The position numbers were made by a program, and so were the translations under genes. Under the pieces are notes generated by a model, which saw only the letters and a list, made by a program, of their open reading frames with translations, made no database searches and was not told the origin of the DNA. A DNA stretch of 64,000 nt from a virus. The DNA is taken from the IMG/VR virus record IMGVR_UViG_3300028581_003594, positions 1 to 64,000 of that record. One strand, given 5' to 3'. This document shows, piece by piece, positions 17,090 through 42,578 of this stretch (positions are counted from its first letter, which is position 1; the number at the start of each line of letters is the position of its first letter).

Positions 17090-17502
17090 TGGCCGACATC
17101 TATCACATATGGTGCGACCCAAAGGAAGGGGTCGACGGCAAGGACTTCGCAGAGAAGATCAGGATCTTCCTGGGAGAACTGGTCAGAGACGGCAAGCTGG
17201 AGTCATTCAGGGTCATGAGGATGAAGTTGGGATTCAGGAGCATGGAACTTCCGGACTTCCACATCATGATGGAGACCAAGAACATGCAGCAGCTGGATGA
17301 CGCCATGAGCCTCGTGGGACGCAGGACCGGAGAATTGGAAGGACACCATGTGGCCATGAACTCCCTGGTTGACAAGAACACAATACAACATGCATTGTAC
17401 AGAGACTTCCCTGACGCTTTCCTTGGCAAGACTGGCAATGAGCCAAGCGAGGAAATAAAAGAAATATTAAAGGCAGTGGATCACTTTCATGAGCAAGATT
17501 AA
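17089..17502 (+). CDS. Conserved protein resembling the DUF6614 family
   Basis: YHIWCD..LESFRVMRMKLGF..LPDFHIMME..QLDDA..ALYRDFPD. Family recalled from memory, not searched. Confidence 0.6.
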   Translation: MADIYHIWCDPKEGVDGKDFAEKIRIFLGELVRDGKLESFRVMRMKLGFRSMELPDFHIMMETKNMQQLDDAMSLVGRRTGELEGHHVAMNSLVDKNTIQHALYRDFPDAFLGKTGNEPSEEIKEILKAVDHFHEQD

Positions 17503-24751: not shown

Positions 24752-25070
24752 GCAGACCTGGGTGCAACTGACTTCGGAGTTCGTCAAGGAATGGCCCGAG
24801 GTTCTAGAGGGCATCAAGTACAGCAACATGCCCATAGGCTACGTCAAGTACTGCGACATCACCTTGAAGAACAACGTGACCATACACTATGACGTGGAGA
24901 AGGAACTGCAGAACAAGAAATCCCAGATGGAAGTGGCCAACACGCTGAAGAGATATGTCAGCAACAACTACGCCAACGTCAAACACGTGGACCTAAAATT
25001 TGACATACCCAAGCTGAAAAGAGAGATGGAGTCAAAGACCAACAAGCTGTTGGACAAAACTTTTAAATGA
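24726..25070 (+). CDS. Hypothetical phage protein
   Basis: 114 aa, EWPEVLEGI motif; overlaps both neighbours. Confidence 0.7.
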   Translation: MPRKLPRTKQTWVQLTSEFVKEWPEVLEGIKYSNMPIGYVKYCDITLKNNVTIHYDVEKELQNKKSQMEVANTLKRYVSNNYANVKHVDLKFDIPKLKREMESKTNKLLDKTFK

Positions 25071-25714
25071 ATGCGTTCTGCCAAAGAAAATTCTTAATAC
25101 TGACGGCTCATCCAGATGACGCAGAAGCCGCCTGCGGCGGATTGATATCCAAAATATTAGCGGGGGGTGGAGCGGTGACCAATCTCATAATGGTCCGACC
25201 ATCCAAGGAGATCAACAGCAAGAGGGACGAGACCATAGTGAGGTCAGAGTTATACAGGAGCCAGGGCGTATTGAAGCACACCGTTGAGTGTTACCAAACC
25301 CCTCTGCACGAAGACGGCAGGCCAAACTTGGTGCTGTCCAACAATCTCATCACGGAAGTGGAGATGGTGGCCAAGGATTATGACGTGTTGATCACGCATT
25401 GGCGAGAGGACACACATCAGGAGCATAGGGTATGCTATGAGTTGGGTCTCAGCATGTCCAGGAAGTCATACCAGGAATTTTGGTGCATGGACCAGGCCCC
25501 GTACAACCTGCGTTATGAAAATTTCAACGCAAATCTCTATGTTGACATAACAGATCATGTGCAACACAAGATCAGGGCGTTGGAGTGCTACAAATCATAT
25601 TTCACGCAAGTAGCAATAGAACAGATCATCAATTACAATCGACACAGAGGTTCTTTCCTCGGCGAGGGCAGGATTGCAGAAACATTCTCGGTGCAATATC
25701 AGAAAATCACATGA
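25067..25714 (+). CDS. PIG-L/LmbE family N-deacetylase
   Basis: AHPDDAE, DTHQEH, YVDIT and KIRALECYKS. Confidence 0.88.
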   Translation: MNAFCQRKFLILTAHPDDAEAACGGLISKILAGGGAVTNLIMVRPSKEINSKRDETIVRSELYRSQGVLKHTVECYQTPLHEDGRPNLVLSNNLITEVEMVAKDYDVLITHWREDTHQEHRVCYELGLSMSRKSYQEFWCMDQAPYNLRYENFNANLYVDITDHVQHKIRALECYKSYFTQVAIEQIINYNRHRGSFLGEGRIAETFSVQYQKIT

Positions 25715-26682
25715 ACATATTGATACTGGGTGGACATGGTCTGATTGGTAGCCGCGTCAGCCAGCGACTGAAGAAAGAGGGACACACCGTGGGTGTGGTG
25801 GACTGCTACCATCAATACAACGCCTTCCCAGACTGGGAGTATTTTCCATTGCTGGAGCAGAGGAAAGTCATTGCCAATAACGATCGCACATTCATGGGCA
25901 GGATCGAGGACAAGGCATTCATGGCCACCACATTTGCTGAATTCCAACCAGAATCGGTTATTCATTTGGGCACTTACCCCAACGCCAAGATGGTTCAGAA
26001 CAACATAGACGATGCCACAGGCAACATGATCAATGCCACGGCGAATGTGCTGGACCTATGCGTCAAACACAAGGTGAGGAAAATTGTTTTCGCCAGCAGC
26101 AGCATGGTGTATGGTGATTTCAAGGAACAGATACCAGATGAGAAAGTGACGCCAAACCCCAACACATTGTATGGCTCGTACAAGTATCAGGGTGAGCTGA
26201 TGTGCAAAATTTGGAGGAGGGCACATGGATTGAATTACGTGATAATGCGACCATCAGCTCTGTACGGCACTCCAGACATAATAGTGCGAGTAATAAGCCA
26301 ATTGGTAAAAAGTGCTTTCACCAAAAAGGAAATGACGGTGCAGGGTCCTGACAACAAATTGGATTTCTCACACGTGGAGGACGTGGCGGAATATTTTGTC
26401 AGGGCCGCGTTGTCTGATGTCGTGGATGAAGTTTTCAATTGCACCAGGGGCAGGGGACGAAGGATAATCGATGCCGCGGAAATAGTGCAATCTCTTATTC
26501 CCGGGGTCAGGATCATCACCAAACCACATGACGAATTTTATCCCAACAGAGACACATTGAACAGCAACAAAGCCATAGCGCTTTTGAAATTCCAACCCAT
26601 GATCGACATTGAGCAGGGCATACCAGAATATGTCAACTGGTTCTCCAAGCAAAAATTTTATAGGGACAATCTAAATTTTTAA
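25711..26682 (+). CDS. NAD-dependent epimerase/dehydratase
   Basis: GGHGLIG, ASSSMVYG and YGSYK; true start is ATG 25711 (ATGA overlap). Confidence 0.9.
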   Translation: MNILILGGHGLIGSRVSQRLKKEGHTVGVVDCYHQYNAFPDWEYFPLLEQRKVIANNDRTFMGRIEDKAFMATTFAEFQPESVIHLGTYPNAKMVQNNIDDATGNMINATANVLDLCVKHKVRKIVFASSSMVYGDFKEQIPDEKVTPNPNTLYGSYKYQGELMCKIWRRAHGLNYVIMRPSALYGTPDIIVRVISQLVKSAFTKKEMTVQGPDNKLDFSHVEDVAEYFVRAALSDVVDEVFNCTRGRGRRIIDAAEIVQSLIPGVRIITKPHDEFYPNRDTLNSNKAIALLKFQPMIDIEQGIPEYVNWFSKQKFYRDNLNF

Positions 26683-28007
26683 TAACTGGCCTCTGCGGGA
26701 TATAATTTGAAGAATGTGTCCTTGGTGAACTTCCAAGAATAAGTCTCTTCTATCTTGGCAACATCGAAATTACAATCTTCCACAAATTTTTTAGCATCAT
26801 GTGCTCCTCGTTTAAGCCATGTGTTGCCTGTAGACAACCATTTTTCAATCCTATATCCCGTTTCCACTGTGGGACGTTGTTTATTCCATAATATTAATTT
26901 GCTGACTTCTCTAAAGGCATTTTTCCATGCTGTGTAGTTGTCTGGGCACAATAATGCTGTGTTTGCCACTATAGGTACGACTTCATGTTTGCTATAAAGA
27001 GTGAAATCCAGACCTGGGGTATCTGGAGTGTCGAGGCATAAAGATCTGGAAAAAAGATTGATATTAAATGTACCATATTCCAATCCAAGTTCGGATAATC
27101 TTGCATGAAATATATAATGTCTTTTATTTTTTGCTCTATCCACAGTGTAATCAAACATAAAATTCTCGTCCACCTGGCTTTTTGCAAACACAGCATAAAA
27201 ATATTCTTGGCTGGATTGTTCGGCCGCTTGTTTATATGCTGCTGTTCTTCCATCCACTCCTCGCACCCAATACAGTTTATTTTTTAAGTTGTTTTTTTGT
27301 AAATGTGTTTTTAACAATTCATAGTTTCCCTCTTCGAATGGTTCTCCGTTGGATATGAAGGCTATATCAAAACAATCTTTTTCCATGTTGTTCTGCAATC
27401 GATACAATAAGTGATAGTCATATATCTGCGTGTGTATCTTATCCACGGCTGCATTTGGTACATAGAATGTGGTGCCATCGATGTAAATTTTTAGATCTTC
27501 CCAATAAGAGGGATATATTTTTTTATCGTTTTCCTTTTCAAAATGTTTAACGTATCTGCAGGGAGGTCCCGGCGTCCTTGTCAGACAATCGATGTTATTG
27601 CTTAGATCGTAGGGGGATTCTGCAATGTTATAATCATAGGATATATTTTTTACAGTATGGTAGTTGATATCTTTGTAGTCTCGTAGATGGTCTATTTGTT
27701 GTTCTGTATACTTCTTTGGTATTAAGAATGTATCACCTTCTTTCTGTCCTTCTATGGACCAAACATGAATTTGTTCTGTTTGGAATTGTTCGGGAATAAA
27801 CATAAAATCAAAATTTCGATAATCAATTAAACTGGAAAGCAACCAAAGATATCGTGTGCTGCATGATGAGATCTGGGATCGTATTATTTCGTGGTAGCTC
27901 TGCAGGAATGGCATGACTCTCACGTAAGGAAATACTTTTTTAATATTCTTTATATTTTGTTCACTTTTACTATTTTTAAAATCTATACAGATACAATCAA
28001 AAGCCAC
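26679..28007 (-). CDS. Glycosyltransferase-like protein (GT-A related, DxD degenerate)
   Basis: C-terminal half FDIAFISNGEP..VRGVDGRTAAYKQAA..AWKNAFRE is paralogous to ORF 39484-40374. Confidence 0.6.
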   Translation of the reverse strand: MAFDCICIDFKNSKSEQNIKNIKKVFPYVRVMPFLQSYHEIIRSQISSCSTRYLWLLSSLIDYRNFDFMFIPEQFQTEQIHVWSIEGQKEGDTFLIPKKYTEQQIDHLRDYKDINYHTVKNISYDYNIAESPYDLSNNIDCLTRTPGPPCRYVKHFEKENDKKIYPSYWEDLKIYIDGTTFYVPNAAVDKIHTQIYDYHLLYRLQNNMEKDCFDIAFISNGEPFEEGNYELLKTHLQKNNLKNKLYWVRGVDGRTAAYKQAAEQSSQEYFYAVFAKSQVDENFMFDYTVDRAKNKRHYIFHARLSELGLEYGTFNINLFSRSLCLDTPDTPGLDFTLYSKHEVVPIVANTALLCPDNYTAWKNAFREVSKLILWNKQRPTVETGYRIEKWLSTGNTWLKRGAHDAKKFVEDCNFDVAKIEETYSWKFTKDTFFKLYPAEASY

Positions 28008-29091
28008 AAAATTCTCCTATCATATCACAAACATATTTGATTTCATTCTTCCTTAGATGTGGATAGATTGGAAGACTCAAACATTCTTTTGAAATTTTTT
28101 CAGCATTAGGGAAAGACTCTTTATTATTAAAATATTTTGTGTGTGGCAATATCGTGTTGTAATGTATTTGTGTTTCTATGCCTTTCTTATTAAGAAATTC
28201 TTTTAAATTATCTCTATCTTTACATAATATCACAAATTTGTGATTGGACCCAGTTGTGTTTGATTGTGTGTCAATAATTTTAACATTCAACAATCTTTTT
28301 AAATGTTGACTGTATTGTTCTCTGACTTGTTGCCTCCTGTCTTGCAGAGTATTAAAATCCATCATCAACACATTCAATTGCGCAGCTTGACTTTCTGATA
28401 TTACAGAATTATATCCATAATCTATGTCAGCACCATTCACTCCATGGTATCTTAGAGCTAGACATTTTTCCTCTATTTCTTTGTCATCGGTTAATATCAT
28501 ACCACCACTGCCAAGAGCAGGCAAATTTTTTGTAGGAGAGAAACTTAACACACTGATATCTCCCAGACTGCCAGAATGTGACTTTTTATAAACGGCTCCC
28601 AACGATTGAGCAGCGTCTTCCACTAACAATATTTTATTTTTACGACAATACTGTTTCAACCTATCATAGTCAGCTAGATTGCCATAAAGATTTACATATA
28701 CTAAAGCATCGGCTTTGATACCTTTGATATCACTAATCTGAGCATCTACTCCCACGTCTACGAATTTCATATGCGCACCGGTACGTTTTATTGCTGTGGC
28801 GGTGCTGAGGAAGGATAGTGCTGGACATATCACTGTTTTACCTGGTCCTATTCCATGCGATCGTAGTGCAAAATACAGTGCATCCGTGCAGCTCTGCACT
28901 CCTATCGCATGCTCCCGTCCCACATAATTTGCTACCAAATCTTCAAACATTCCTAATTCTGAATCTACTTTTTTTCTACCCATTAGCACGTTGCCTGTTC
29001 GCCAAACGTCTCGGGCAGCTTGATCTAGTTCTCCCTTGTAACAAGAATAGATTCTATCTAATCCGTTAAATTTTATTTTGTAACCACTCAT
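27997..29091 (-). CDS. DegT/DnrJ/EryC1/StrS PLP-dependent sugar aminotransferase
   Basis: SCTDAL, EDAAQSLG, SFSPTKNL, GGMILT and LSLPIYP. Confidence 0.93.
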   Translation of the reverse strand: MSGYKIKFNGLDRIYSCYKGELDQAARDVWRTGNVLMGRKKVDSELGMFEDLVANYVGREHAIGVQSCTDALYFALRSHGIGPGKTVICPALSFLSTATAIKRTGAHMKFVDVGVDAQISDIKGIKADALVYVNLYGNLADYDRLKQYCRKNKILLVEDAAQSLGAVYKKSHSGSLGDISVLSFSPTKNLPALGSGGMILTDDKEIEEKCLALRYHGVNGADIDYGYNSVISESQAAQLNVLMMDFNTLQDRRQQVREQYSQHLKRLLNVKIIDTQSNTTGSNHKFVILCKDRDNLKEFLNKKGIETQIHYNTILPHTKYFNNKESFPNAEKISKECLSLPIYPHLRKNEIKYVCDMIGEFCGF

Positions 29092-30007
29092 AATATTTCT
29101 CGATGCCTTTATTAAAATCATACTTAGGCATATATCCTAAAAAACTTTTAGCCTTTGTCACATCCAGCGTACCTCTGGAAGGATACAATGAATTTTTGCC
29201 CGTGTCTATAATTTTGCTTTTGCTTCCGGTCAGCTTGATAATTTTCTCTGCCGCTTCTCCTAAACTGCTTGCATTGCCTGCTGTGATATTGAATGTTTGA
29301 TTGGCAGCTTTTTCCGCCAAAGCACAACTGATGATGCCATCGGCTGCATCCTCTACATAGGTGAAATCGATCTTATTTTCATTGTCATGGACATAGATAT
29401 TCTCGTTTAACATTGCGGCTTTAAAAAATTTGCTTAAAACTCGATCTGGTATATCGCCTGCTCCATACACCCCACTGGGCCTGGCTATCACGTACTCGAG
29501 ACCAAATGCCCTGTTGAATTGCTGTGTTAGTCTCTCTCCTGACAATTTGGCCTCTCCATAGATGTTGACCGGAGCAGGCACGCTGTTCTCATCCGCTCCA
29601 TCCTTGAAGTCCCCGTATACCATGCTGGAGGACACATAAACAAAGCGCTTGACTCCGTGTTCCACGCAGTCCTGCAACATGCCCGTGGTGCCCACCACTA
29701 TGTTCTCCACTCCCAGCTCTGGCTGCTCATTGACTATCTTGGCCCTGGGATAACTTGCCAGGTGTATCACTATGTCTTGTTTTCTCAACCACACGCGATC
29801 CAGAGGCACGGTCACATCTCCTGATTTCTTTGTTACCTGATTCCAGTTCCTCTGACGCCATTGACAAAGACTATCTAAAGAATCCCTATCAATCACATCA
29901 TAGGTTTCTCCAGAATCTATTGTGGTAATTTTATGGCCCATGCGACATAATTTCTCCACAATCCAACTGCCAATGAATCCTTCTCCTCCGGTGATTAAAA
30001 TTTTCAT
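29066..30007 (-). CDS. NAD-dependent epimerase/dehydratase
   Basis: TGGEGFIG, VSSSMVYG, YGEAK and DFTYVED. Confidence 0.92.
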   Translation of the reverse strand: MKILITGGEGFIGSWIVEKLCRMGHKITTIDSGETYDVIDRDSLDSLCQWRQRNWNQVTKKSGDVTVPLDRVWLRKQDIVIHLASYPRAKIVNEQPELGVENIVVGTTGMLQDCVEHGVKRFVYVSSSMVYGDFKDGADENSVPAPVNIYGEAKLSGERLTQQFNRAFGLEYVIARPSGVYGAGDIPDRVLSKFFKAAMLNENIYVHDNENKIDFTYVEDAADGIISCALAEKAANQTFNITAGNASSLGEAAEKIIKLTGSKSKIIDTGKNSLYPSRGTLDVTKAKSFLGYMPKYDFNKGIEKYYEWLQNKI

Positions 30008-31494
30008 AGTACCCTTACATTATACTTGGTTTCAAAGCGTTCCGCATCCTTGATGTCATTTACCATGGGCTCGCCCTTGATATTGAGAGATGTGTTCAAC
30101 AGCATGGGACAGCCGGTCTTTTGCTTCCATGTTTTTAACAGTTGGTAAAAACCTGGATTCTGTGTTTTATTCACTGTTTGCACACGGCTGGTGCCGTCAT
30201 GATGCACAATGGCAGGAAAGTCTTTACCATGCTTACAACGGGCTATAAATTGCATATAAGGGGTGTTTACAACGCACTTAGGTACCTCAAAATACTCGTG
30301 TAGATCCTCCTCTAGTATGGCGGGTGCAAATGGTCGAAATTGCTGTCTCTTCTTGATGCGATTTACCAAATCTTTGATATCATCGCCTCTTGGATCTGCC
30401 AGCAATGATCTATTACCAAGAGCCCTGGGTCCAAACTCTGCCCTGCCATTGGCCACGCCCACCATGCGATTGTTTTCCAATTCTTTCATGATGGCATCCA
30501 CAGGGTATTCTCCTGCTATGTTATGTCCCAGGAAAGGATGACGCCAATTGATGTGTCTTCGTTCAGCTGCCGCGATACACCCTATGGAACTGCCAGCATC
30601 TCCTGGATTGGGCATGATCCATATGTTGTCAAACAATCCAAGATCGGCCAATCGACTGTTGGCCACACAATTTAGGGCCACCCCACCTCCATACACCAGG
30701 TTTCTCTTGTTGCCGTATGGACTGACCGCTATCTGACCATTTGGTATGTACTGTCGAGCCTTGCGCCACAGTTTTTCTAATTCTTGTTCCGTAACTTTTT
30801 GTATGCTGGCTGCCAGATCCATGGGATCAGCTTCGGGTAGCCAGTTGTGCAATCCTCTGTGTAGATTTTTCTTCAATGTGAAATCTCCATCCCTGTCCAC
30901 GAGATCCTTGTAAACCTCTGCCACATGTCTGGGTTCTCCGTATGCTGCCATGCCCATTAGGATGTACTCTTCTTCGGCGGGTTTTAGTCCAACTCGCTGT
31001 GTGAACGCTGAATACAGCACACCCAATGAATGAGGATATTTGATCCTGTAGCATAGTTCTAATCGCTTGCCCTGGGCTTGCCATATTGAGGTGGTATCCC
31101 ATTCTCCTATGGCATCCACTGTCAACACCATGGCATCATAGAATGGCGATGTGAAAAACCCCGCAGCGGCGTGAGATTCATGGTGACCCACATACTGATC
31201 TATCTTTATTCCAAATGCATTTAGATAATTTTGTGGCATGTTAGTTCTGGAGAAAACTTCCGCCCATTGCCCAGCATAGGCCTGTCGAGTCTTTTTTAAC
31301 AATGGTCGCTCATAATAGACCACTCGGTCCCATGGTCCGTATTCGCGAGCCTCGTTGACTATTTGCCAATTGAGATACGGATCGTTCTTGTCCTTGCTGT
31401 ATCTCTCTGCGTGTGCCGCCCATAGGATCTCTCCATCTTCAACCACTGCCATGGCGGCGTCATGATTGAGGCAGTTGATTCCTAAAGTTCTCAT
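30004..31494 (-). CDS. O-carbamoyltransferase (NodU/CmcH/TobZ family)
   Basis: HDAAMA, HHESHAAA, DAIGE, MGMAAYG, GGVALNC, GDAG, EFGPRALGNRS, FRPFAP and LNTSLN. Confidence 0.95.
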   Translation of the reverse strand: MRTLGINCLNHDAAMAVVEDGEILWAAHAERYSKDKNDPYLNWQIVNEAREYGPWDRVVYYERPLLKKTRQAYAGQWAEVFSRTNMPQNYLNAFGIKIDQYVGHHESHAAAGFFTSPFYDAMVLTVDAIGEWDTTSIWQAQGKRLELCYRIKYPHSLGVLYSAFTQRVGLKPAEEEYILMGMAAYGEPRHVAEVYKDLVDRDGDFTLKKNLHRGLHNWLPEADPMDLAASIQKVTEQELEKLWRKARQYIPNGQIAVSPYGNKRNLVYGGGVALNCVANSRLADLGLFDNIWIMPNPGDAGSSIGCIAAAERRHINWRHPFLGHNIAGEYPVDAIMKELENNRMVGVANGRAEFGPRALGNRSLLADPRGDDIKDLVNRIKKRQQFRPFAPAILEEDLHEYFEVPKCVVNTPYMQFIARCKHGKDFPAIVHHDGTSRVQTVNKTQNPGFYQLLKTWKQKTGCPMLLNTSLNIKGEPMVNDIKDAERFETKYNVRVL

Positions 31495-31495
31495 T

Positions 31496-31600
31496 TTATT
31501 TGTAGATGAAAGGATCTTTCTTTTTCAGCTCTTTCAATCTCTTGCGATATTGCAACTCCAGTCGCACTTTGTTTATTAGGCCCTTGATCCATCCTATCAT
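31496..31600 (-). CDS. Small basic protein (34 aa), absent from the ORF track
   Basis: MIGWIKGLINKVRLELQYRKRLKELKKKDPFIYK; SD AAGGAG; ATGA-coupled to the upstream gene and fills the gap exactly. Confidence 0.7.
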   Translation of the reverse strand: MIGWIKGLINKVRLELQYRKRLKELKKKDPFIYK

Positions 31601-32406
31601 GTTTTGCTCCTTTTTGTGTTGTACAGATCTAGAAATTTACCGGACATCAATCCAGCGGCATCCACGTGTGCCTGGTCCAAAGGATGCGTGGTGCCTCGCG
31701 GATAGTCGTTCAGCAATGTCCATTGATTGAACCCCATGTTCCTTTCTCCAAAAAAATGCCATTTGCCTAGGTCAAGCTCATTATACAACGCATTCATCAA
31801 AGGGTCAACTTGGCTGAGTGGTTTGAGTTCATCCCAGAACAATGTGTTGTCCGCCAGCGTGAAAAAATAACCTATGTTCTTCTTTTCCAATATGTTCTGC
31901 AGCCAAACAATGCTCTTCCAGCTGAGATAGGTCTCATGATACTGGTTGGCCGCGTGCCTATACAATGCGTCAGCGAATGGCCCCACTCCCGTGCTGCGCA
32001 TGTCCTCCCTGCGTTTTTTCCAAACTTCCAGCTGTGGCTCGCTGGTGGCCAATTTCTTGTGTACCTCCGCCTGTGTGTCCGAGGTGTCCCAGGGAGTTAT
32101 GGTGGCCCATCTGGTCTTTTCCAGCACTGCGTTCCTGGGCATGGCCCAGTCGTAGCGAGAACAGAAGCTCCACATGATGGCCACGAACATGTCACGTGAT
32201 TGGTTCTGCGACACGTACTCGAACACACGCCGCGCTATGCCCGCGTTTCCTGTGCCTGGATATGACACAGTGGCGTAGTCCGCATTGGCGCTGGTGGCCA
32301 GCAGTGCCGACCATGACTTCTTGGAGGGGACCTTGCCGTCCTTGTCATCAGACAATTCGTGCCCGTAAGTGAAGCTGCAGCCCCCAGATAATAACAGTCT
32401 ATTCAT
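31597..32406 (-). CDS. SGNH/GDSL-like hydrolase or acyltransferase
   Basis: GCSFTYG (block I Ser), PGTGN, and C-terminal THPLDQAH. Confidence 0.7.
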   Translation of the reverse strand: MNRLLLSGGCSFTYGHELSDDKDGKVPSKKSWSALLATSANADYATVSYPGTGNAGIARRVFEYVSQNQSRDMFVAIMWSFCSRYDWAMPRNAVLEKTRWATITPWDTSDTQAEVHKKLATSEPQLEVWKKRREDMRSTGVGPFADALYRHAANQYHETYLSWKSIVWLQNILEKKNIGYFFTLADNTLFWDELKPLSQVDPLMNALYNELDLGKWHFFGERNMGFNQWTLLNDYPRGTTHPLDQAHVDAAGLMSGKFLDLYNTKRSKT

Positions 32407-34857: not shown

Positions 34858-36127
34858 ATAATTCGGCCAGTTCCGGAAAAGTTTCCAATATATTCTCATT
34901 CCTGATGTCGTCTAATTTCTTCATTCCCGATTTGAACTCTTCTATTTGTTCAAACTTGTCTCTCCTCATCATGTAATCCAAGCCAGACTGGAATCCTTTC
35001 GTGGCCCTGGTGAGATGATCTTGTGGTCTAAGCCATGCTATATGTGACTCATATTTTTCTTTTACCTTTTGTTTCATTGACTCAGGCAATAGATCAATTC
35101 TTTGCCAGAAAGGAAATTGTAATAGATTAAAATTAAAATCTTGGGGTTTTATGTAGCCTTGTTCCGACCACGTTCTGTGGAAATCCACCACATGCAGGGC
35201 ATTGATCAATCCCACAGTAGCACTGATATAAAAATCCACCTTTGGACACATAGCTTGCATTCTTTTTCTATTTGATTCTATCTCTGTCCATACAGTGCCT
35301 TTCCTCATGAATTCTGCTCTTGGTCCCATTGCATCAAGGCTAGCGCCCACAGAGACTGAATCAAACTTGTTCCATAGTTCTAACACATCCATGTCTTTGA
35401 AAGTTAATTTGCTAAAGTTAGTATTATAGATTAATCTCACGTGGTACAGCTTCCTGCGATCGAGTTCTTTTAAAATTTTATAGTGTTCTTCCATTATGAG
35501 GGGTTCTCCTCCGGCGAAATAGAACTGCTCCACATGATCAAACTGCGTCAACATCTGCTCCCAGATGTCATCTGCTGTTCTGCCCACTTTCATTATCTTG
35601 GCATGCCCTGGTGGTTTGCCAGTTAATTTTTTATGGTCCTCGTACCAATTGGATGAGAACCATGTGCCACAACTGCGACAGGCAAAGTTACAGAGATTGC
35701 TGAATCGTATATCCCAATACTTGATTACGAAATCAGCAGTGCCATCTGCTTGTGTGTTGTCGATCATGCCTATGTTGTGTCCAAAATGTTTGTTAGAACT
35801 TAATCTTAGGCTAAAAAATCCCGACTTCTCTTGGTCATAGCACTTGCCGCACTGCCGTGACTGTGTGTTTGACAACATGTTGAGACGCATCTCTCGCATA
35901 TCATTGCCATTAAAAACTTCTGCCATAGAACTCTTGTTTAAATCTCCTACAGGGTATTGATCCAATCCAAAACAACATGGATAAGCTCTGCCATCTGGAA
36001 AAGCATGTAGATGTAACCATGGCATCATGCAAAAAGTATCACTATCTAGCAGCAATTCTTTTTGCTTTGAGGTCATGTCTTTAATTTTTAATTTTTCGGG
36101 CTCTTTGGCCCCATACTCATAAGCCAC
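34844..36127 (-). CDS. Radical SAM protein with N-terminal Twitch/SPASM-like domain
   Basis: CMMPW..PCC..CGKC, then CNFACRSC, GGEP and YNTNFS. Confidence 0.9.
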   Translation of the reverse strand: MAYEYGAKEPEKLKIKDMTSKQKELLLDSDTFCMMPWLHLHAFPDGRAYPCCFGLDQYPVGDLNKSSMAEVFNGNDMREMRLNMLSNTQSRQCGKCYDQEKSGFFSLRLSSNKHFGHNIGMIDNTQADGTADFVIKYWDIRFSNLCNFACRSCGTWFSSNWYEDHKKLTGKPPGHAKIMKVGRTADDIWEQMLTQFDHVEQFYFAGGEPLIMEEHYKILKELDRRKLYHVRLIYNTNFSKLTFKDMDVLELWNKFDSVSVGASLDAMGPRAEFMRKGTVWTEIESNRKRMQAMCPKVDFYISATVGLINALHVVDFHRTWSEQGYIKPQDFNFNLLQFPFWQRIDLLPESMKQKVKEKYESHIAWLRPQDHLTRATKGFQSGLDYMMRRDKFEQIEEFKSGMKKLDDIRNENILETFPELAELYEKD

Positions 36128-37466
36128 GGTACCACTCTCCTATCCTTGCAAATGTTTTGGCAAAATCCTTGCCTCTTCTCTCATCGTATTGTTTATAGAA
36201 ATTTTTAAAGTCCGACCGCAGTCTTGGTAAATCAAATGCCTCTGAATGTGGAGTTTTGACCACGTCCAGATAGTCTATCAGTCGCTGCACATGGTCCACT
36301 TCCATCTGTTCGCAGTGCGTTATATTTGCATCCAACCATCGGGATAGGTCATCACGGAATTCCAGCCTCAGGTGATCCGGCAACACCAGCGGAGATTGGA
36401 AGCTGGGGAATCTCAATATGTTGAGAGTGAAATTGACATTGACCCCATACACCCTCTTGGCATCCAATTTGTTCCTTATGATCACATCTAGGAATCGAGG
36501 CAATGATTCTAGGCAAAGGGCATTGACTGTACACATGTTGTGCAGTCCTGCAGGTCGTATTTGATCTATGACATTCACAAAGTTCACATACCAATTGGCA
36601 TAATCCATTCCATCTCTGCTGTAATCTGAATGGGCATACGTGGATTCATTGGAAGTATAGATATGCAAATTTTTTATTCGTTTACACTTGTCTACAAATT
36701 TTTCAAATAATTCTGCCTTGGGCACTAGGTTGGAGTTGATGGCCAATCGCATGTTGGGGTTGATACGTTCTCCCTGTGTTTCGAACCAATCCAACAATCT
36801 CCACAGGGAAGGTGACATCATGGGCTCTCCACCCGTGATCCTCAATTCATCTAGTGTCTTGTGTAGATCTGTTTCCCACCATCGAAAGAATGCTTCCACA
36901 TAGGGATTTTCTTCTGTGTCTTTGTACAATTGTGCACCATCATGAGCATGAGTGAAATGATTCCTGCCATCTGATATTAAATCCTTATAAGGACCATGCT
37001 GTTTTATGTCTCTCGCCCAGGTGGTGCTGAACGCAGGGTTACAATAGGAACAGGCAAAATTACATGTTCTATCAAAGGCAATCTCCAGGGTTTTTAGATT
37101 TACATCTTCTGTGATGGGAGTACTGAATGCTCTTTCTAGATCCGCGTCTGGATAGATTTTACTTTTGTAAACCCTGTCACTCACGGCATCTCTGCCCATG
37201 TCCTCAATCTTCCAGCAGTATTCGCAACCAGCGGGGCGTTCGCCCGCTATCATCTTGGCGCGGTCCTGTTTCTTCTGCGGGGTGTTGTGCAACAATCTGG
37301 GATTATCTCTTAATTTTGCCACATCCACTTGGTGAGCGGGCGGATGATGGCAGCTGGTGGTCATTCCAGAGCCCAGCCATATGGTGGCGTTGTACCACTT
37401 GGCTCCACAGAAGCTGGGAGATAGCGAATCTAATATTTGTTTACGATATTCAAGATCTTTATTCAT
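36117..37466 (-). CDS. Radical SAM protein with N-terminal Twitch/SPASM-like domain
   Basis: CGAKW..SCHHP..CEYCW, then CNFACSYC and GGEP. Confidence 0.9.
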   Translation of the reverse strand: MNKDLEYRKQILDSLSPSFCGAKWYNATIWLGSGMTTSCHHPPAHQVDVAKLRDNPRLLHNTPQKKQDRAKMIAGERPAGCEYCWKIEDMGRDAVSDRVYKSKIYPDADLERAFSTPITEDVNLKTLEIAFDRTCNFACSYCNPAFSTTWARDIKQHGPYKDLISDGRNHFTHAHDGAQLYKDTEENPYVEAFFRWWETDLHKTLDELRITGGEPMMSPSLWRLLDWFETQGERINPNMRLAINSNLVPKAELFEKFVDKCKRIKNLHIYTSNESTYAHSDYSRDGMDYANWYVNFVNVIDQIRPAGLHNMCTVNALCLESLPRFLDVIIRNKLDAKRVYGVNVNFTLNILRFPSFQSPLVLPDHLRLEFRDDLSRWLDANITHCEQMEVDHVQRLIDYLDVVKTPHSEAFDLPRLRSDFKNFYKQYDERRGKDFAKTFARIGEWYRGL

Positions 37467-38100
37467 TGTTTTTTATTGCTGCGTAGACTTTGTCAGCCCA
37501 AAGTTTATTTTGTTCGGCGCTCATGTGATTGATTATACCTTTGCCCCACGGCATTGTTGCCCCTCTGCCAGGCAAGAAATTTAATTCATGGTTCAATGAT
37601 AGAGCATACATGCTCTCATCAATGAATATTCCGCTGCTCAATTTGATTCCAGCGTCTTTTTTTGCCTGTTCAAATGGACGGAAGCTCCAGGTTTGTACAA
37701 TTGTTTTATTTTTTATTTTAGATAATACGTCGTGGTCAAACCATTTCAGGGCATATTCGTAGGCCAACTCATCTCTGTCGTAGCTGTGCAGGTGTATGAA
37801 GTACTGTTCCAGGGCATCGTATATCTTAGGATTCACTCCGGGAACGGGCTGGGTATTGGCCGACAGTATCAGATCTGGATGATACAACCTATAAGGCTCT
37901 GTATAGCACAGCACGCAGGTGTCAGGCAGCTTATTTTCCTGGTTCAATTTATTGAATTTAAAAAAGGTAGTCCATATGCTGCGGCCGGGCTCGCCCATGT
38001 GTACTATCTTGGCTCCCAATCTATCTGCCAACAATGTGCACCAGCTTTCTTTTTCCTTGCCTGCGCAGAAACTGTCTCCAAAAAATCCTATTGTCCTCAT
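37459..38100 (-). CDS. SGNH/GDSL-like protein
   Basis: GFFGDSF, GEPGRS and C-terminal NHMSAEQN; ATGA-coupled start at 38100. Confidence 0.7.
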   Translation of the reverse strand: MRTIGFFGDSFCAGKEKESWCTLLADRLGAKIVHMGEPGRSIWTTFFKFNKLNQENKLPDTCVLCYTEPYRLYHPDLILSANTQPVPGVNPKIYDALEQYFIHLHSYDRDELAYEYALKWFDHDVLSKIKNKTIVQTWSFRPFEQAKKDAGIKLSSGIFIDESMYALSLNHELNFLPGRGATMPWGKGIINHMSAEQNKLWADKVYAAIKNNE

Positions 38101-39491
38101 AAGCTCTTGCACTCCTGCCAAAATTCCTGCATCTCAGGAAATGTTTGCTCAAAACTTGTGCCACGTCTGCGATCGTGTTCTGCAAAAAATGCGTAAAAAT
38201 TCTTTTTCTGCGCACTGTCTTTTTCCTGGTGCTTGCGCCAGTAAGCAAGATTGCGCTGCATCTTCTGTATCTCAAAGTCTTTGAACAACGAGAAATCCAA
38301 TCCAGTTCCAGTCACTTGTTTGGGACCAATCTGCTCATGGTGATCCATCATGTATTTGATGTTGTCCTCATGTATGCGCTGATATGATTCGGGCAGCAGG
38401 GTTATCTGTTGCCATGCGGGCTGGCGCAGCAGGGGAATATCGAACCACACTCGCTGATAGGTTTTTGAATGCTCCGATCTCAACAGGCGTATGTGTTTGA
38501 GTAATCTGTTCAGTGAGGTCACACTTAAATTATTGTAGGTGATGATAAAAGTGATGGAATTGCGCACGGGTATCCTGTGCAGGAACTCATTGACATTGTC
38601 CATGAATTGATTGTAGTTCAGTCCGTTCCTGATGTACTCTGCCTGTGCGCCATGGGCATCCACAGACACGAACTGCATGAAATGCTCCACTTTCTCATCC
38701 AGGCATATCCTTTTGACCTGATCAAAATACTTGTTTTTCAATTTGATGTCCGGAGGACACATGTTTGATGTAACATTTAGGTGCAGGTCTTTCTTGGGAT
38801 GATCTATGATGTAGTCAAACACTCGATAGGTGTTGACATCCATCATGGGCTCGCCACCGGTCATGCGGAAGTGTTTTAAATTCTTATACAATTCCGGCCA
38901 CCAGCGCCAGAATGCTTCCACGTAGGGATTGTTTTCTCTGTTGGGTATGGGCATCCTCCTGCCCGTGAAATGCTCGGGTGCGTTGTGCTCTGGCGCAGTG
39001 GGATACGCTCCATATATGTCTATCTCCTTGCCCCATGCAGTGGAAAATTGTGGTGAGCAATAGCTGCATTTGAAATTACAGGCATTGTTGAAGTTTACTT
39101 CCACATAGCGAGGCACATGTGTCCTGTCCAACGGATTGTCTCTGATCTTCTCAAAGTCCATCATGGCCCATGGCTCGCCGGAACGATAGTGGCGATCACT
39201 CATCTCGCCCGTGTCCTCCATCTTCCAGCAATAGGAACAGCCCGCGGGTCTTTCGCCTGCCAGCATCTGTTGCCTCTGCTTGATCTTTTCTTCTGTGTTG
39301 TGCAGTGCTGCTGGATTGTCTGCCAGGCCTGCAGCATCTATTTCGTGCAATGGTGGATGATAGCAAGAGTTCGTCAGTCCTGTGGGCAGATGCAGAGACA
39401 CCTGGTTCCATTTGGCCAGGCACATGGTGGGGCTTATTTGTTCTAATTCTCTCTTTGCCTCATCCGCTGATGTTTTATAAACGCTACTCAC
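38097..39491 (-). CDS. Radical SAM protein with N-terminal Twitch/SPASM-like domain
   Basis: CLAKW..SCYHP..CSYCW, then CNFKCSYC and GGEP; likely GTG start at 39491. Confidence 0.9.
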   Translation of the reverse strand: MSSVYKTSADEAKRELEQISPTMCLAKWNQVSLHLPTGLTNSCYHPPLHEIDAAGLADNPAALHNTEEKIKQRQQMLAGERPAGCSYCWKMEDTGEMSDRHYRSGEPWAMMDFEKIRDNPLDRTHVPRYVEVNFNNACNFKCSYCSPQFSTAWGKEIDIYGAYPTAPEHNAPEHFTGRRMPIPNRENNPYVEAFWRWWPELYKNLKHFRMTGGEPMMDVNTYRVFDYIIDHPKKDLHLNVTSNMCPPDIKLKNKYFDQVKRICLDEKVEHFMQFVSVDAHGAQAEYIRNGLNYNQFMDNVNEFLHRIPVRNSITFIITYNNLSVTSLNRLLKHIRLLRSEHSKTYQRVWFDIPLLRQPAWQQITLLPESYQRIHEDNIKYMMDHHEQIGPKQVTGTGLDFSLFKDFEIQKMQRNLAYWRKHQEKDSAQKKNFYAFFAEHDRRRGTSFEQTFPEMQEFWQECKSL

Positions 39492-40374
39492 GATCCTGCA
39501 CTCCTTTGTTCCTGTAAGGTTGTTGACAAAACTTATAAAATTGGCTCTGTGCTGCATCAAAATCTGCCACGGGCAATGCCAATCTCTGTCGCAGACTGTT
39601 GCCATGGGCCGACATATCAGATTCTATATCATACATCATGTGAGAAAATTTGTCGCTCATGAATTCTAAATCTCTGACCAGTGTGACATCGTAGTTTGTA
39701 TCCAGCGTGGCCATATAACAGCCACATCGGGCACCCAGCATGGCCCATCGACCATTCTCCACGTCAGCACCCACGCTCATCCATGTGACTAGATTTCTAA
39801 GATTGGGCTGGGGGATCGTCTGCATGAAAAGGCTAGGATCTACCTTCTGTCCATTATCGAGACTCATTTTAACACCTTCTCTCCATCCTGCTATGAAAGC
39901 CTGTTCAGGAGTATGATTGATATGTGTCGTGGAGTATACATTGTGCAGATTCTCATGTGGCACCGTCCAACAGAAATCTATCTTGGCTCGTTCTTCCACA
40001 GCATTTTCATGAGTTTTCATTTCCAAGCAAATCTTGCGAGGCCATCCCACAATACCACCATTGCCATATATCAATCCATTAATAATGTTTCTTGCTCTCC
40101 AACGATGCACAGCAAGAGGATTGGTCTTGCTCCAATCCAGCGTCTGTAATAGGAAAGCGGGATCTATTCTATTGTCCCCATCGATGCTGATAAAGAAATC
40201 TGTTTCTGCTCGTTCGGCGGCGGCCTTGTGTGCGTTGTCAAACCCCTTGACTCCATGCACTCGTTTGGCCCAGGGCACTATGTTCAATAGGTCAGCGTAG
40301 TTCTCATCAGCGTTGGGCTCTCGATAGCTAATAAAAACAAAATCTAGATCGGTTACTCGGACGGTGTTTGCCAT
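39484..40374 (-). CDS. GT-A fold glycosyltransferase-like protein
   Basis: FVFISYREP, VHGVKGFDNAHKAAA, DxD motif IDGDN, YGNGG and AFIAGWREG. Confidence 0.7.
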   Translation of the reverse strand: MANTVRVTDLDFVFISYREPNADENYADLLNIVPWAKRVHGVKGFDNAHKAAAERAETDFFISIDGDNRIDPAFLLQTLDWSKTNPLAVHRWRARNIINGLIYGNGGIVGWPRKICLEMKTHENAVEERAKIDFCWTVPHENLHNVYSTTHINHTPEQAFIAGWREGVKMSLDNGQKVDPSLFMQTIPQPNLRNLVTWMSVGADVENGRWAMLGARCGCYMATLDTNYDVTLVRDLEFMSDKFSHMMYDIESDMSAHGNSLRQRLALPVADFDAAQSQFYKFCQQPYRNKGVQDRE

Positions 40375-40694
40375 GCGTGTCCTCCTTCTCCCGTTCCAGT
40401 GGGCCAATATGGATCTCCATTAGAAAAATGCAAGCCATCAGACGATGCCAACAGCACACTGTATTTCCGCTTTATCTCCGCGGGGGGCTTACGGATGATC
40501 TTGCCCTGCTCGTAGTAAAAATTTTGATGTCCTTGGCCCAGCAGCATGAGGTATGTTTGCTTGTCTACGCTTGTTGTGTCCGTGCCCTGTTGGTTGGCCA
40601 GGCACAGTATCTCATTGCCTTTGGTCCTGATGTAGTATTTTGGATCAAATTTCTTGGGCTTGAAATTCTTCAGCGAATCAAAAAGTTCTTGCAT
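40353..40694 (-). CDS. Hypothetical protein
   Basis: 113 aa; overlaps both neighbours. Confidence 0.65.
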   Translation of the reverse strand: MQELFDSLKNFKPKKFDPKYYIRTKGNEILCLANQQGTDTTSVDKQTYLMLLGQGHQNFYYEQGKIIRKPPAEIKRKYSVLLASSDGLHFSNGDPYWPTGTGEGGHAWQTPSE

Positions 40695-41481
40695 CTAACA
40701 CCTCCGGTATGTTCTTGTCATGGTAGTGCCACACGCTGGACATCCTTCTTCCCCCCAGGTACAACCTGTCCCGCAGCCTGACGGGATAGAGATAGTTGTT
40801 GCAGTCCTCGGTGGGCGAGCCGTTGATGGCTGACTTGCCATGCACGAACTTGAACCATTTGTAATCTATTAAATTTTGCTGCGTGGGTTCCATGATCCTG
40901 TGGGCCAGGGCATACACCACGTCCGTGGTCGGGAACTTGTCATGGCAGTTCACGAGCATTTTTTCTTTGACCTGCTGCCAGTTGCTCGCTATGGCATCGC
41001 ACAGCATGAAAAATTTCTGTGCCATTTTGCTTTTCCTGAAATATGTCAGCCCGTTGTATATGTTTGGCAGGTGATTCCTTGTAAAAAGTTTCCTGTATGT
41101 GCCGTCCACGATCTCCTGGTCACGATAATTCAGGCAATTGACGGAAAACACCATGTCACGCTGGCACAGGTGCTCCCACCACCAGTCGGTGTTGGCTGTC
41201 CACAGCATGTCAGACTCCAGCTTGATAGTGTGTACATAGGGTGACAGCGAGAACACCTGATGTTCATTGGCAAATTTTTGTTCGTGCTCCTGGCTGTGAT
41301 CTCTCCGCAGCAGCCGGACCACGTCCACGTGCTCGCTGCTGAACATGGAATGCTCGTCCACCAGCACGCATATGCTGTTGTGCCTGTTGTGTCGCTTGAT
41401 GGACCTGGCAAGTTCAATGCTGCACCTCACGTAATCAGTGGTGCTGTTGTTCTGGCAAACCCAAATGAATCCCCTAGACAT
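40678..41481 (-). CDS. GT8-like nucleotide-diphospho-sugar transferase
   Basis: DYVRCSIELARSIK, LSPYVHTIKLESDML, YNGLTYFRK and TDVVYALA. Confidence 0.7.
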   Translation of the reverse strand: MSRGFIWVCQNNSTTDYVRCSIELARSIKRHNRHNSICVLVDEHSMFSSEHVDVVRLLRRDHSQEHEQKFANEHQVFSLSPYVHTIKLESDMLWTANTDWWWEHLCQRDMVFSVNCLNYRDQEIVDGTYRKLFTRNHLPNIYNGLTYFRKSKMAQKFFMLCDAIASNWQQVKEKMLVNCHDKFPTTDVVYALAHRIMEPTQQNLIDYKWFKFVHGKSAINGSPTEDCNNYLYPVRLRDRLYLGGRRMSSVWHYHDKNIPEVLDARTF

Positions 41482-42229
41482 TGACAAATCCTTTGTTGAG
41501 CACATGCACGTCCTGTCCCTGTATGCTGTTGATGCTGTTGAGATGCCGGTAGCACAGGCCATCACCGTCATGGCTGATCACATCGCAGTCCTGTGGCAAC
41601 GTGGCGATGGAATCCGGGATCACGTCATATGCGCCGAAGCCGTTGATCTGATTCAGTGCCATGGCGAATGCATAATCGTTCCTGAAATTTTTGTAGTCTA
41701 TCCTGTAGAGGTTGCAGTAGTGGTTGTAATTTTGCTTGATCATCTTGACCAGGTCAAATATCCTGCGCACACGATCAGTCTTCCTGAAGATCAACACCGT
41801 GGCCCAGACCAGGGGCAGCATGGACTTGCGCTCATAGGTCAGTGCCTGCCTGTAGGACACATCATGTGCGCGGTCATGTATGAGGAAGTCATGCGCTGTG
41901 CCACTGAGCCGCAGCAATTTGTCGGAGAAGCAAAGATAGTCCACGTCCAGCACAATGGTGGTGGCGTACGGCGAGTGGTCAAATGCCTGGCAGCGCTCGA
42001 GGTTGTGCCATGGCAGCCCCAGCTTGGTGTTGTTGCACTCGTTGTCCACAGTGATGAAGTCAATTTCTGGCCTGTCGACCCAGCGCTGCAATGTGTGTGC
42101 GTTGGTGACCATGGTGATGGGCAGTTCCAGGTGCTGCTTGACCAATGCCACGCTGGCGTTGGCCACCCTGTGGTAGGGCACCTGTTCCGTGTCAAAGCAA
42201 TACATCAGCACGCCCCGTGTCATGTTCAC
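41474..42229 (-). CDS. GT8-like nucleotide-diphospho-sugar transferase
   Basis: HSPYATTIVLDVDYL (DxD), WATVLIFRK, RNDYAFAMA and HVLNK. Confidence 0.72.
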   Translation of the reverse strand: MNMTRGVLMYCFDTEQVPYHRVANASVALVKQHLELPITMVTNAHTLQRWVDRPEIDFITVDNECNNTKLGLPWHNLERCQAFDHSPYATTIVLDVDYLCFSDKLLRLSGTAHDFLIHDRAHDVSYRQALTYERKSMLPLVWATVLIFRKTDRVRRIFDLVKMIKQNYNHYCNLYRIDYKNFRNDYAFAMALNQINGFGAYDVIPDSIATLPQDCDVISHDGDGLCYRHLNSINSIQGQDVHVLNKGFVNV

Positions 42230-42543
42230 TCCTTCAGTGTTCGCAGCGATTGATAGGCCTGGTGATAGGTGTTGAGGGCCGCCTGCTGGCGCTCCACCAG
42301 CGCGGCTATGAATTGCTTGGGATCCTTGATCTCCACGGGATTGGAATTGGCGTCCAGCATGAAGAAGCTGTCGCGATGCTCCATCAGCATGGTGGCCGTG
42401 GCTATGGTGAGAGGGTCCGCGCGGAATATGTGGTCATTGTACACCGTGACCATCTCGCTGTCAGCCCTGGACAGTAGATTCTTCTTGGCCACTGCCCTGT
42501 CAAAGCTGAGATCGCTGTGTCGCTTGAGTTCATTGATATCCAT
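42226..42543 (-). CDS. Hypothetical protein, first gene of the glycan operon
   Basis: 105 aa, directly downstream of a sigma70-like promoter. Confidence 0.7.
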   Translation of the reverse strand: MDINELKRHSDLSFDRAVAKKNLLSRADSEMVTVYNDHIFRADPLTIATATMLMEHRDSFFMLDANSNPVEIKDPKQFIAALVERQQAALNTYHQAYQSLRTLKE

Positions 42544-42549: not shown

Positions 42550-42578
42550 ATTATAGCTTAATTATCGTGGTAGATCAA
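42550..42578 (-). promoter_or_regulatory. Sigma70-like promoter driving the leftward glycan/radical SAM operon
   Basis: Minus strand TTGATC-17 nt-TATAAT, 6 nt before ATG 42543. Confidence 0.7.

Follow-up and report, generated by a model that had tools for sequence, protein, structure and literature searches.

A conserved operon of soluble sugar-tailoring enzymes with five radical SAM paralogs in an uncultured freshwater jumbo phage

The first 64,000 nucleotides of the IMG/VR virus record IMGVR_UViG_3300028581_003594 (the window, meaning the whole stretch of DNA analysed) belong to a 72.7 kb linear viral contig. They contain a leftward operon of approximately 16 kb that encodes five distinct radical S-adenosylmethionine (SAM) enzymes of the family NF033640 together with sugar-modifying enzymes. 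Here we describe the structure of this operon, its conservation and its relationship to known phage systems. The operon is a real and conserved phage set of soluble sugar-tailoring enzymes, and it is the radical SAM family in it that most deserves experimental attention. Our preferred reading, held tentatively and at somewhat less than even confidence, is that the operon carries its own promoter and that its soluble enzymes build a glycan and tailor it by radical chemistry on an acceptor intrinsic to the phage, probably the fibres of the virion. The features of the cluster are given below in window coordinates, with open reading frames abbreviated as ORFs, nucleoside diphosphate as NDP and pyridoxal phosphate as PLP; SDR stands for short-chain dehydrogenase/reductase and GT for glycosyltransferase.

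25067..25714, plus strand: PIG-L family de-N-acetylase (PF02585, 47.5 bits, cut-off 28.2)
25708..26682, plus strand: SDR1, extended SDR of the NDP-sugar epimerase/dehydratase family (Pfam Epimerase, 137 bits)
26679..28007, minus strand: GTa442, last gene of the operon, C-terminal half a divergent GT2-like candidate without DxD
27997..29121, minus strand: DegT/DnrJ/EryC1 PLP sugar aminotransferase (PF01041, 277.5 bits)
29066..30007, minus strand: SDR2, NDP-sugar epimerase-type SDR (Pfam Epimerase, 139.7 bits)
30004..31494, minus strand: CarbT, O-carbamoyltransferase of the NodU/TobZ/NovN type (Carbam_trans_N 158 bits, Carbam_trans_C 188 bits)
31496..31600, minus strand: unannotated basic ORF of 34 residues with an AAGGAG ribosome-binding site
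31597..32406, minus strand: SGNH269, SGNH residue pattern, no curated family
32399..33571, minus strand: rSAM1, N-terminal-twitch radical SAM (NF033640, 376 bits)
33553..34899, minus strand: rSAM2, N-terminal-twitch radical SAM (NF033640, 309 bits)
34844..36127, minus strand: rSAM3, N-terminal-twitch radical SAM (NF033640, 411 bits)
36117..37466, minus strand: rSAM4, N-terminal-twitch radical SAM of a second subtype (NF033640, 287 bits)
37459..38100, minus strand: SGNH220, GDS(F)-motif protein by residue pattern, optional operon member
38097..39605, minus strand: rSAM5, N-terminal-twitch radical SAM of the second subtype (NF033640, 326 bits)
39484..40374, minus strand: GTa307, divergent GT2-like (GT-A) candidate with an invariant D-G-D, from weak GT2 matches of its orthologs
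40353..40694, minus strand: g113, small ORF (24-37% identity in 48 loci)
40678..41481, minus strand: GTb297, GT-A candidate and paralog of GTb251 (hhalign 96.7%)
41474..42229, minus strand: GTb251, GT8/Nucleotid_trans-like GT-A candidate, from protein Atlas clusters
42226..42543, minus strand: g105, with which the operon begins (36-59% identity across 52 loci)
42550..42578, minus strand: sigma-70-like promoter TTGATC-17-TATAAT, by consensus match
42595..43572, minus strand: g325, fibre-like, cysteine-free protein with 27% Ser/Thr, candidate acceptor by composition and alignment
43574..45199, minus strand: tail-fibre-like protein (PHROG tail-fibre and virion-structural families, E 1e-6 to 6e-12)

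The leftward array comprises 19 minus-strand ORFs from g105 (start at 42543) to GTa442 (end at 26679), the unannotated 34-residue ORF included, and every junction within it is an overlap or a spacing of at most 1 nt. The 34-residue ORF occupies what is otherwise the only apparent gap of the operon, between SGNH269 and CarbT. PIG-L and SDR1 are located on the plus strand, outside the operon and convergent with its end. None of the 19 operon and cassette proteins contains a membrane segment, and no hydrophobic 19-mer exceeds 1.6 in any of them. Family-model scans and the hydrophobicity scan of the cluster proteins identified no flippase, polymerase or polyprenyl-phosphate transferase. Because no cluster protein has a membrane segment, a cytoplasmic pathway is supported. 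Fibre-like and virion-like genes with PHROG matches lie directly upstream. An earlier note on this DNA (the original prediction) had described a tightly coupled leftward operon that held most of the genes, adjoined the tail genes, worked in the cytoplasm and lacked a flippase, polymerase, undecaprenyl transferase or transmembrane protein, and all of this was borne out.

The five radical SAM proteins are members of NCBIfam NF033640 (N_Twi_rSAM, twitch domain-containing radical SAM protein), which has a cut-off of 170 bits. With scores of 286-411 bits they account for every match to this model in the 72.7 kb contig, and the 14 control genomes yield no match over the cut-off. The five Twitch-type paralogs originally predicted are therefore confirmed. 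The match of rSAM5 begins at residue 58, and its start codon is uncertain. In three of the five paralogs a Pfam SPASM match (residues 11-75, 28-103 and 33-97) precedes the Radical_SAM match; in rSAM1 the two occupy residues 11-75 and 115-263. Four N-terminal cysteines, a CX3CX2C motif (C146/C150/C153) and a GGEP motif are invariant in an alignment of all five. The paralogs share just 20-29% pairwise identity and fall into separate deep clades of a FastTree phylogeny (sampling seeded with rSAM3, supports given as FastTree local values), in which rSAM4 and rSAM5 group with two enzymes of the Ralstonia phage RsoM2USA.

The same enzymes had been described as BtrN-like dehydrogenases, and this part of the original prediction did not hold. 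Like the BtrN/anSME-type oxidoreductases they combine a radical SAM core with one auxiliary Cys4 cluster domain and have sugar-tailoring neighbours. However, the auxiliary-cluster domain is N-terminal, ahead of the core, so that the domain order is reversed, and the proteins belong to NF033640. They have no significant score on the models of characterised SPASM/twitch enzymes (the best anSME score is 34 bits vs 441). Assignment to prokaryotic viperin was also rejected (NF038283, 16-27 bits vs 180). SPASM peptide maturases, as found with peptides that ribosomes make and that are modified after translation (RiPPs), were not recognised either: the maturase models give at most 34 bits against cut-offs of 340-850, and the small ORFs of the operon are poorly conserved. 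No characterised member or reaction of NF033640 was found in the open-access literature.

NF033640-like proteins are represented by 9502 cluster representatives (E <= 0.001), and one radical SAM of the operon has more than 7400 metagenomic homologs. With rSAM3 as the query, 57 viral loci with 72-92% identity were retrieved. In four of nine NF033640 loci inspected from bacteria or metagenome-assembled genomes, the enzyme has GT2, DegT, SDR, PhyH dioxygenase, UbiA or ABC-transporter genes as neighbours; another two loci are phage-like contigs that carry this operon as well, and three offered no clue. Three Bdellovibrionota loci have arrays of four or five radical SAMs, one with three GT2 genes and two without. 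Among 18 longer members that were scanned, TPR repeats occur in six, Sel1 in one, ankyrin in one and an N-terminal GT2 domain in one, and nine have nothing further.

The DegT protein matches positions 5-359 of the 360 in the PF01041 profile; it attains no equivalog cut-off, and among the solved proteins closest to it are the sugar 3-aminotransferases QdtB and WbpE. SDR2 is nearest to solved uridine diphosphate (UDP)-hexose and UDP-uronate 4-epimerases. CarbT has both of its domains over their cut-offs, and its relatives in the PDB are NovN, GdmN and TobZ (E 1e-57 to 1e-36). It is a member of the family and not NodU itself (NodU equivalog 151 bits vs a cut-off of 1000). Homologs of the carbamoyltransferase are present in 136 phage records, mostly of cyanophages and pelagiphages, without an assigned function. 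Two NDP-sugar epimerases/dehydratases, a DegT aminotransferase, a PIG-L deacetylase and a carbamoyltransferase had been named in the original prediction, and each was recovered by its family model. The amino-sugar modification pathway it proposed, with carbamoylation, is likewise supported by the nearest solved relatives of DegT, SDR2 and CarbT.

GTa307, GTa442, GTb251, GTb297, SGNH269 and SGNH220 have no Pfam, NCBIfam or PDB-sequence match; the PDB profile searches of these proteins other than SGNH220 used 23-member profiles. GTb251 is close to the GT8, Nucleotid_trans and Mannosyl_trans3 clusters of the protein Atlas (0.96-0.97), and all of the named clusters are GT-A. Its D95 and D97 are invariant and form a D-x-D motif. 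GTb297, related to GTb251 by hhalign as listed above, has E-x-D at the DxD position. GTa307 itself scores 14 bits on Pfam PF00535 against a cut-off of 23.3, and a sub-threshold Glycos_transf_2 match covers the DxD region in 14 of 23 orthologs. The GTa domain also exists as a tandem pair in longer metagenomic proteins, where the second copy passes the GT2 cut-off in two of the 12 scanned (P0322 with 25.3 bits and P0327 with 28.5 bits on PF00535). The C-terminal half of GTa442 is homologous to GTa307 (hhalign 99.1%), and DxD is missing in 23 of 23 orthologs. Its N-terminal half has no significant kinship to the other families of the cluster (at most 17%). In the Atlas, GTa442 neighbours clusters made up of viral proteins only, and GT2 is a weak lead (0.86). 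Among the loci L063-L141, the profile hidden Markov models of GTa and GTb match in four phage-like contigs only. GTb251 and GTb297 are thus candidate GT8/GT-A-like proteins, and GTa307 and GTa442 candidate divergent GT2-like proteins. For the four GT-like genes originally predicted, an indirect GT8/GT-A or GT2 kinship can be put forward, and no curated family model matched. As a separate observation, in other aquatic contigs the tandem GTa pair stands at the start of proteins of 550-1220 residues (P0271-P0390), and for several of the 12 scanned the only matches over the last few hundred C-terminal residues are weak ones of coiled-coil type.

Two further proteins are patterned like SGNH hydrolases. 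In SGNH269 the residues S11, G51/G53, N54, D244 and H247 (Asp-x-x-His) are invariant across 23 orthologs, none of which has a Pfam match. In SGNH220 the residues G15-D16-S17, N89 and H199 are invariant across nine orthologs, and the true start is the Met of MRTIGFFGDSF. We read these residues as the SGNH blocks. The two SGNH proteins of the original prediction are candidates by residue pattern: their invariant residues fit the four blocks of the family, and no family model matched either of them. The small ORF g113 has no family match in the Pfam, NCBIfam and PHROG scans. The 34-residue ORF is kept upstream of the carbamoyltransferase in just four of 44 loci and was rejected as a core part for this reason.

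The operon is widely conserved among related phages. Of the 57 related viral loci, 38 are fully covered, and the presence of an ortholog was scored at >=45% identity. The five radical SAMs, GTa307, both GTb proteins, SGNH269 and CarbT are present in all 38. The genes for g105, g325 and the fibre protein are also present in 36, and in each of these 36 loci the 13 core genes have the same order and strand. The remaining genes are patchy among the 38: PIG-L is found in five, GTa442 in 10, SGNH220 in 11, SDR1 in 15, DegT in 19 and SDR2 in 24. The G+C content (GC) of GTa442 and DegT is 0.36, and that of the rest of the operon is 0.40-0.55. In other relatives the slot ahead of CarbT contains methyltransferases, an APS-kinase-like P-loop kinase, a cytidylyltransferase-like ORF, a thioredoxin-reductase-like flavoprotein, a cupin or an MBD4-type glycosylase domain. 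Glycan loci typically pair an invariable core with decoration genes that can be exchanged. Because the order of the core is fixed and the precursor genes vary, the operon is not a recently captured host locus, and the fixed core with exchangeable decoration cassettes is a trait of the phage lineage. Outside the window, we observed that the MBD4 DNA-glycosylase-domain protein (127-136 residues, E = 1e-18; for example L031:16665-17048, also in L011, L021, L052 and others) adjoins a small P-loop kinase and the cytidylyltransferase-like ORF.

A megablast of the whole cluster against isolated phages found nothing. At the protein level, GTa307 and GTb297 each match one phage among 50,697 isolated-phage records, the Ralstonia jumbo phage RsoM2USA (MG752970), and the radical SAMs of the operon match three to four of these records. 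One group of genes in RsoM2USA, ORFs 355-347, codes for a fibre-like and a g105-like protein, two GTb proteins, a GTa protein, an rSAM5-like enzyme and a further GTa protein. ORF350 is 39.6% identical to GTa307, ORF352 29% to GTb297 and ORF349 35% to rSAM5. The relative of g105 is weak and in the same position, and g325 is partly similar to ORF355. A second group, ORFs 203-199, encodes SGNH269-like proteins, an rSAM4-like protein (ORF202, 51.6%) and a carbamoyltransferase (45.8%), and here three SGNH269 relatives flank the radical SAM. ORFs 361, 359 and 356, just upstream of the GT locus, are among the virion bands identified by mass spectrometry. All of the ORFs of the two groups are annotated as hypothetical, and the available part of the RsoM2USA paper is silent on them, with no occurrence of 'radical SAM' or 'carbamoyltransferase'.

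The operon is preceded by a promoter. The spacer of 51 nt between g325 and g105 is the sole intergenic gap and contains TTGATC-17-TATAAT, which ends 6 nt ahead of the g105 ATG, so the start of g105 is predicted to be leaderless. Of 35 distinct relatives, 32 retain TTGnnn-N16-18-TAnnnT at this position. No match to the T4 late-promoter motif TATAAATA exists in the window or at this place in any of the 35 relatives. The related pattern TTGA-N18-20-TATAAT has seven sites in the 72.7 kb contig (positions 2432, 16030, 21179, 31808(-), 42578(-), 50144 and 51804(-)), six of them immediately upstream of genes that include the DNA polymerase region, cobS and the sugar operon. The seventh is located inside SGNH269, approximately 285 nt ahead of the carbamoyltransferase gene. 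Because the promoter type is common with the polymerase and cobS genes, early or middle rather than late expression is suggested, and the operon may be transcribed in that period by the host polymerase. Generic promoter and terminator scans of the region gave no excess over shuffles (34 vs 31.5 and 19 vs 17.4). Contigs from RNA libraries of all four lake metatranscriptome runs are 90-97% alike to the phage DNA and cover parts of 38.8-45.4 kb and scattered parts elsewhere. These contigs derive from relatives, may include DNA and are no proof of transcription, and the uncovered parts carry no meaning. Two of them terminate in adapter sequence, at 42534 and 42539 near the g105 start, which is a weak hint in support of the promoter.

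From these families we infer the following pathway. The SDR, DegT and PIG-L enzymes would convert NDP-sugars of the host to amino-sugar donors. A short glycan would be put together in the cytoplasm by three or four transferases of the GT-A type (two GT8-like and one or two GT2-like). The five non-redundant N-terminal-twitch enzymes would then make radical edits on the sugars, for which oxidation, epimerisation, deoxygenation or the formation of C-C bonds are possible. The SGNH-patterned proteins may handle O-acyl groups, and the TobZ/NodU-type enzyme would add an O-carbamoyl group. The acceptor would be phage-intrinsic, probably the Ser/Thr-rich fibre-like proteins directly upstream. We favour such an acceptor because the core is common to phages of very different habitats, because GTa and GTb look phage-only, because the GT module stays behind fibre-like genes even in RsoM2USA, and because g325 is 27% Ser/Thr. 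The protein g325 has no PDB or Pfam match.

Several observations weigh against this pathway. The assignment of the glycosyltransferase and SGNH candidates is indirect, and when compared with a small set of six bacterial GT2 proteins hhalign gave a probability of only 24% for GTa and 0.1% for GTb. Sugar genes are missing from three of the nine bacterial or metagenome-assembled NF033640 contexts and from two of the three Bdellovibrionota loci. The TPR, Sel1 and ankyrin fusions (eight of 18) hint at protein substrates for some members of the family. In RsoM2USA the part with rSAM4, SGNH and CarbT lies approximately 90 kb from the fibre-linked part. The promoter type of the operon precedes the DNA polymerase and cobS genes and not fibre genes, and the adjacency to the fibres may just be conserved gene order. 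In some relatives the cassette of glycosylase plus kinase recalls the thymidine hypermodification clusters, as far as these are described in the available part of PMC8989533.

Another explanation is hypermodification of DNA (or of nucleotides), in which a base of the phage genome would receive a sugar or some different group, attached and tailored by the operon, as an escape from host nucleases. All of the enzymes are soluble, the promoter type is common with replication genes, 7-deazaguanine precursor genes are present in the window, and a variable decoration cassette could mirror an arms race. Approximately eight related loci have the MBD4-type HhH-GPD domain (PDB 4ew4, E = 1e-18) beside the small P-loop kinase, and the thymidine clusters, in the portion of PMC8989533 available, likewise use PLP and radical SAM enzymes. 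However, the window has neither a glycosylase-like gene nor a kinase, and the kinases of the relatives fit APS-kinase/AAA_33 models with no match to the Pfam 5-hydroxymethyluracil (5-hmU) kinase model. A 5-hmU DNA kinase and aGPT-Pplase/AADT are absent from the Pfam matches of the window ORFs. The contig and five related contigs, which are 21-55% complete, yielded neither a hydroxymethylase of the thymidylate-synthase family nor TGT/DpdA, and the bacterial relatives of the radical SAMs are in polysaccharide-type loci. We therefore regard base modification as unlikely. The glycan could instead be that of the host. The enzymes would alter a conserved precursor in the cytoplasm, for instance a lipid-linked intermediate of the envelope or a nucleotide sugar pool, with the result that the surface is changed and superinfection is blocked. 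This has been proposed for the glycosyltransferases of the pelagimyophage host recognition clusters (PMC7029224, in the part available), and it would suit both the early-type promoter ahead of the operon and the carbamoyltransferase homologs of cyanophages and pelagiphages in the 136 phage records. It is hard to square host-specific surface glycans with the same core in lake-water relatives and a soil Ralstonia phage. In addition, GTa and GTb were seen in phage-like DNA only and the membrane-bound components of a Gtr-type seroconversion set (GtrA, GtrB and a serotype-specific Gtr) are not to be found among operon proteins without a hydrophobic segment. Editing of host glycans is on this evidence distinctly unlikely.

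The remaining explanations are less probable still. A RiPP-like modification would mean that the task of the five radical SAMs is the crosslinking or epimerisation of residues in a phage protein or in g105, g113 or the 34-residue ORF, with the sugar enzymes being secondary. SPASM/twitch radical SAMs are frequently peptide maturases, small ORFs exist within the operon, and eight of the 18 fusion proteins contain TPR, Sel1 or ankyrin. Yet the maturase models stay far under their cut-offs (<=34 bits vs 340-850), g113 and the 34-residue ORF are poorly conserved, Pfam detects no RRE-type domain and the bacterial contexts are rich in sugar genes, which makes this reading quite improbable. There is at best a slim chance that the product is a diffusible small molecule, an aminoglycoside-like or Nod-factor-like metabolite produced during infection. 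Aminoglycoside pathways also use DegT, SDR, O-carbamoyltransferase and twitch radical SAM enzymes, and the nearest solved carbamoyltransferases are NovN, GdmN and TobZ; but no scaffold-forming enzyme (inosose synthase or chitin-oligomer synthase) was found, and neither an exporter nor a resistance gene was found in the operon. Finally, a host lipopolysaccharide (LPS) or capsule locus lately captured by this single phage is hardly credible. The low GC of GTa442 and DegT (0.36 vs 0.40-0.55) would fit an exchange of that cassette. Such a capture, which the original prediction had set against its own reading, is contradicted by the synteny across relatives, with an identical order in 36 of 36 loci that have all 13 core genes. 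It is at odds too with the number of metagenomic homologs that a single radical SAM has (more than 7400), the separate deep clades of paralogs that are 20-29% identical, and the restriction of the GTa and GTb families to phage-like DNA.

The consequences depend on where the product resides. If it decorates virions, phage self-glycosylation would grow from a trait of one or two enzymes to a pathway of approximately 20 genes, which would matter for how hosts are recognised, how stable the particles are and what part abundant aquatic jumbo phages play in ecology. A product located on DNA would amount to hypermodification of a new kind. A bolder proposal, which we consider possible and on balance doubtful, is that the five N-terminal-twitch enzymes form a new class of glycan-editing (or nucleobase-sugar-editing) enzymes that together with phage-only GT-A families builds a hypermodified carbamoylated amino-sugar on fibres or DNA. 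If true, viruses would encode a 'radical glycan code' that is widespread across lakes and oceans and lacks a characterised cellular counterpart. The operon, with its soluble proteins only, could be rebuilt in a laboratory host. What the present analysis contributes is a relative in culture, the surroundings of the radical SAM family in bacteria, the link between GTa and GT2, and a conserved promoter of leaderless type.

The source of the contig is an uncultured freshwater jumbo myovirus of approximately 350 kb. The genome size follows from the CheckV completeness of the contig (approximately 21%) and of related contigs of 114-197 kb (29-55%). In its family-B DNA polymerase the phage shares 49% identity with the Sinorhizobium jumbo phage Phosso, 45% with Atu_ph07 and approximately 42% with Rak2-like phages. 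The window contains fibre-like paralogs, and no tRNA genes were found in it. The other window features of note are listed below.

11748-12788: third SDR, GDP-mannose-dehydratase-like, distant from the main operon
12788-13540: FolE, 7-deazaguanine/queuosine precursor gene
13852-14895: GMP-reductase/IMPDH-like protein, within the queuosine-precursor stretch
14885-15352: phosphoribosyltransferase, within the queuosine-precursor stretch
15372-16013: YhhQ/Vut_1 transporter-like protein, within the queuosine-precursor stretch
17489-18349: QueE, 7-deazaguanine/queuosine precursor gene
21240-23587: CobS-like AAA ATPase and DUF2201 metallopeptidase/VWA protein pair, upstream of the cluster
49343-50152: QueC-like protein (weak match), 7-deazaguanine/queuosine precursor gene
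53750-64000, continuing to contig position 66625, minus strand: giant structural-type ORF of 4291 residues

The 7-deazaguanine/queuosine precursor genes are scattered, at 12788-18349 and 49343-50152. The third SDR adjoins an ORF of 392 residues without an assignment, and both are within 10613-12788. For the in-window part of the giant ORF, identity to 'virion structural protein' genes from Phosso and from Rak2-like jumbo phages is approximately 25% across some 1900 residues.

No paper on this operon or on a characterised phage pathway like it was found in the open-access literature. Soluble glycosyltransferases of mycobacteriophages reportedly decorate the structural proteins of their own virions, as Freeman et al. 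2023 are said to have described. That system is said to consist of one or two transferases, with no set of radical SAM, aminotransferase or carbamoyltransferase enzymes. The claim of the original prediction that no characterised phage pathway resembles the cluster is broadly right for the radical SAM part and is qualified by this mycobacteriophage system and by the pelagimyophage 'host recognition clusters'. In the part of PMC7029224 available, these clusters are islands next to the tail fibres of T4-like aquatic pelagimyophages and cyanomyophages, in which glycosyltransferases (GT8 most commonly) and radical SAM cassettes occur, and they are interpreted as modifying the host O-chain. As described there, the clusters are variable and without a five-enzyme radical SAM set, whereas the core described here is fixed. 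In addition, the source phage belongs to the jumbo phages, and its nearer kin are Phosso, Atu_ph07 and the Rak2-like phages.

The thymidine hypermodification clusters of the phages M6, ViI and PaMx11 (PMC8989533, in the part available) share PLP enzymes, radical SAM and swappable tailoring genes with the operon, and relatives of the source phage pair a P-loop kinase with an HhH glycosylase-type protein. They differ in that the window is without the 5-hmU kinase and the aGPT-Pplase, and in that their radical SAM is photolyase-like and not of NF033640; glycosyltransferases have no occurrence in that part of the paper. RsoM2USA is a cultured phage with homologs of g105, GTb251, GTb297, GTa307, rSAM5, rSAM4, SGNH269 and CarbT. 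It differs in that these are split between two loci, with two radical SAM homologs in the stretches examined (L141 and L142). NF033640 itself is a family with no more than a name, and the phage operon unites five of its deep paralogs as a fixed set.

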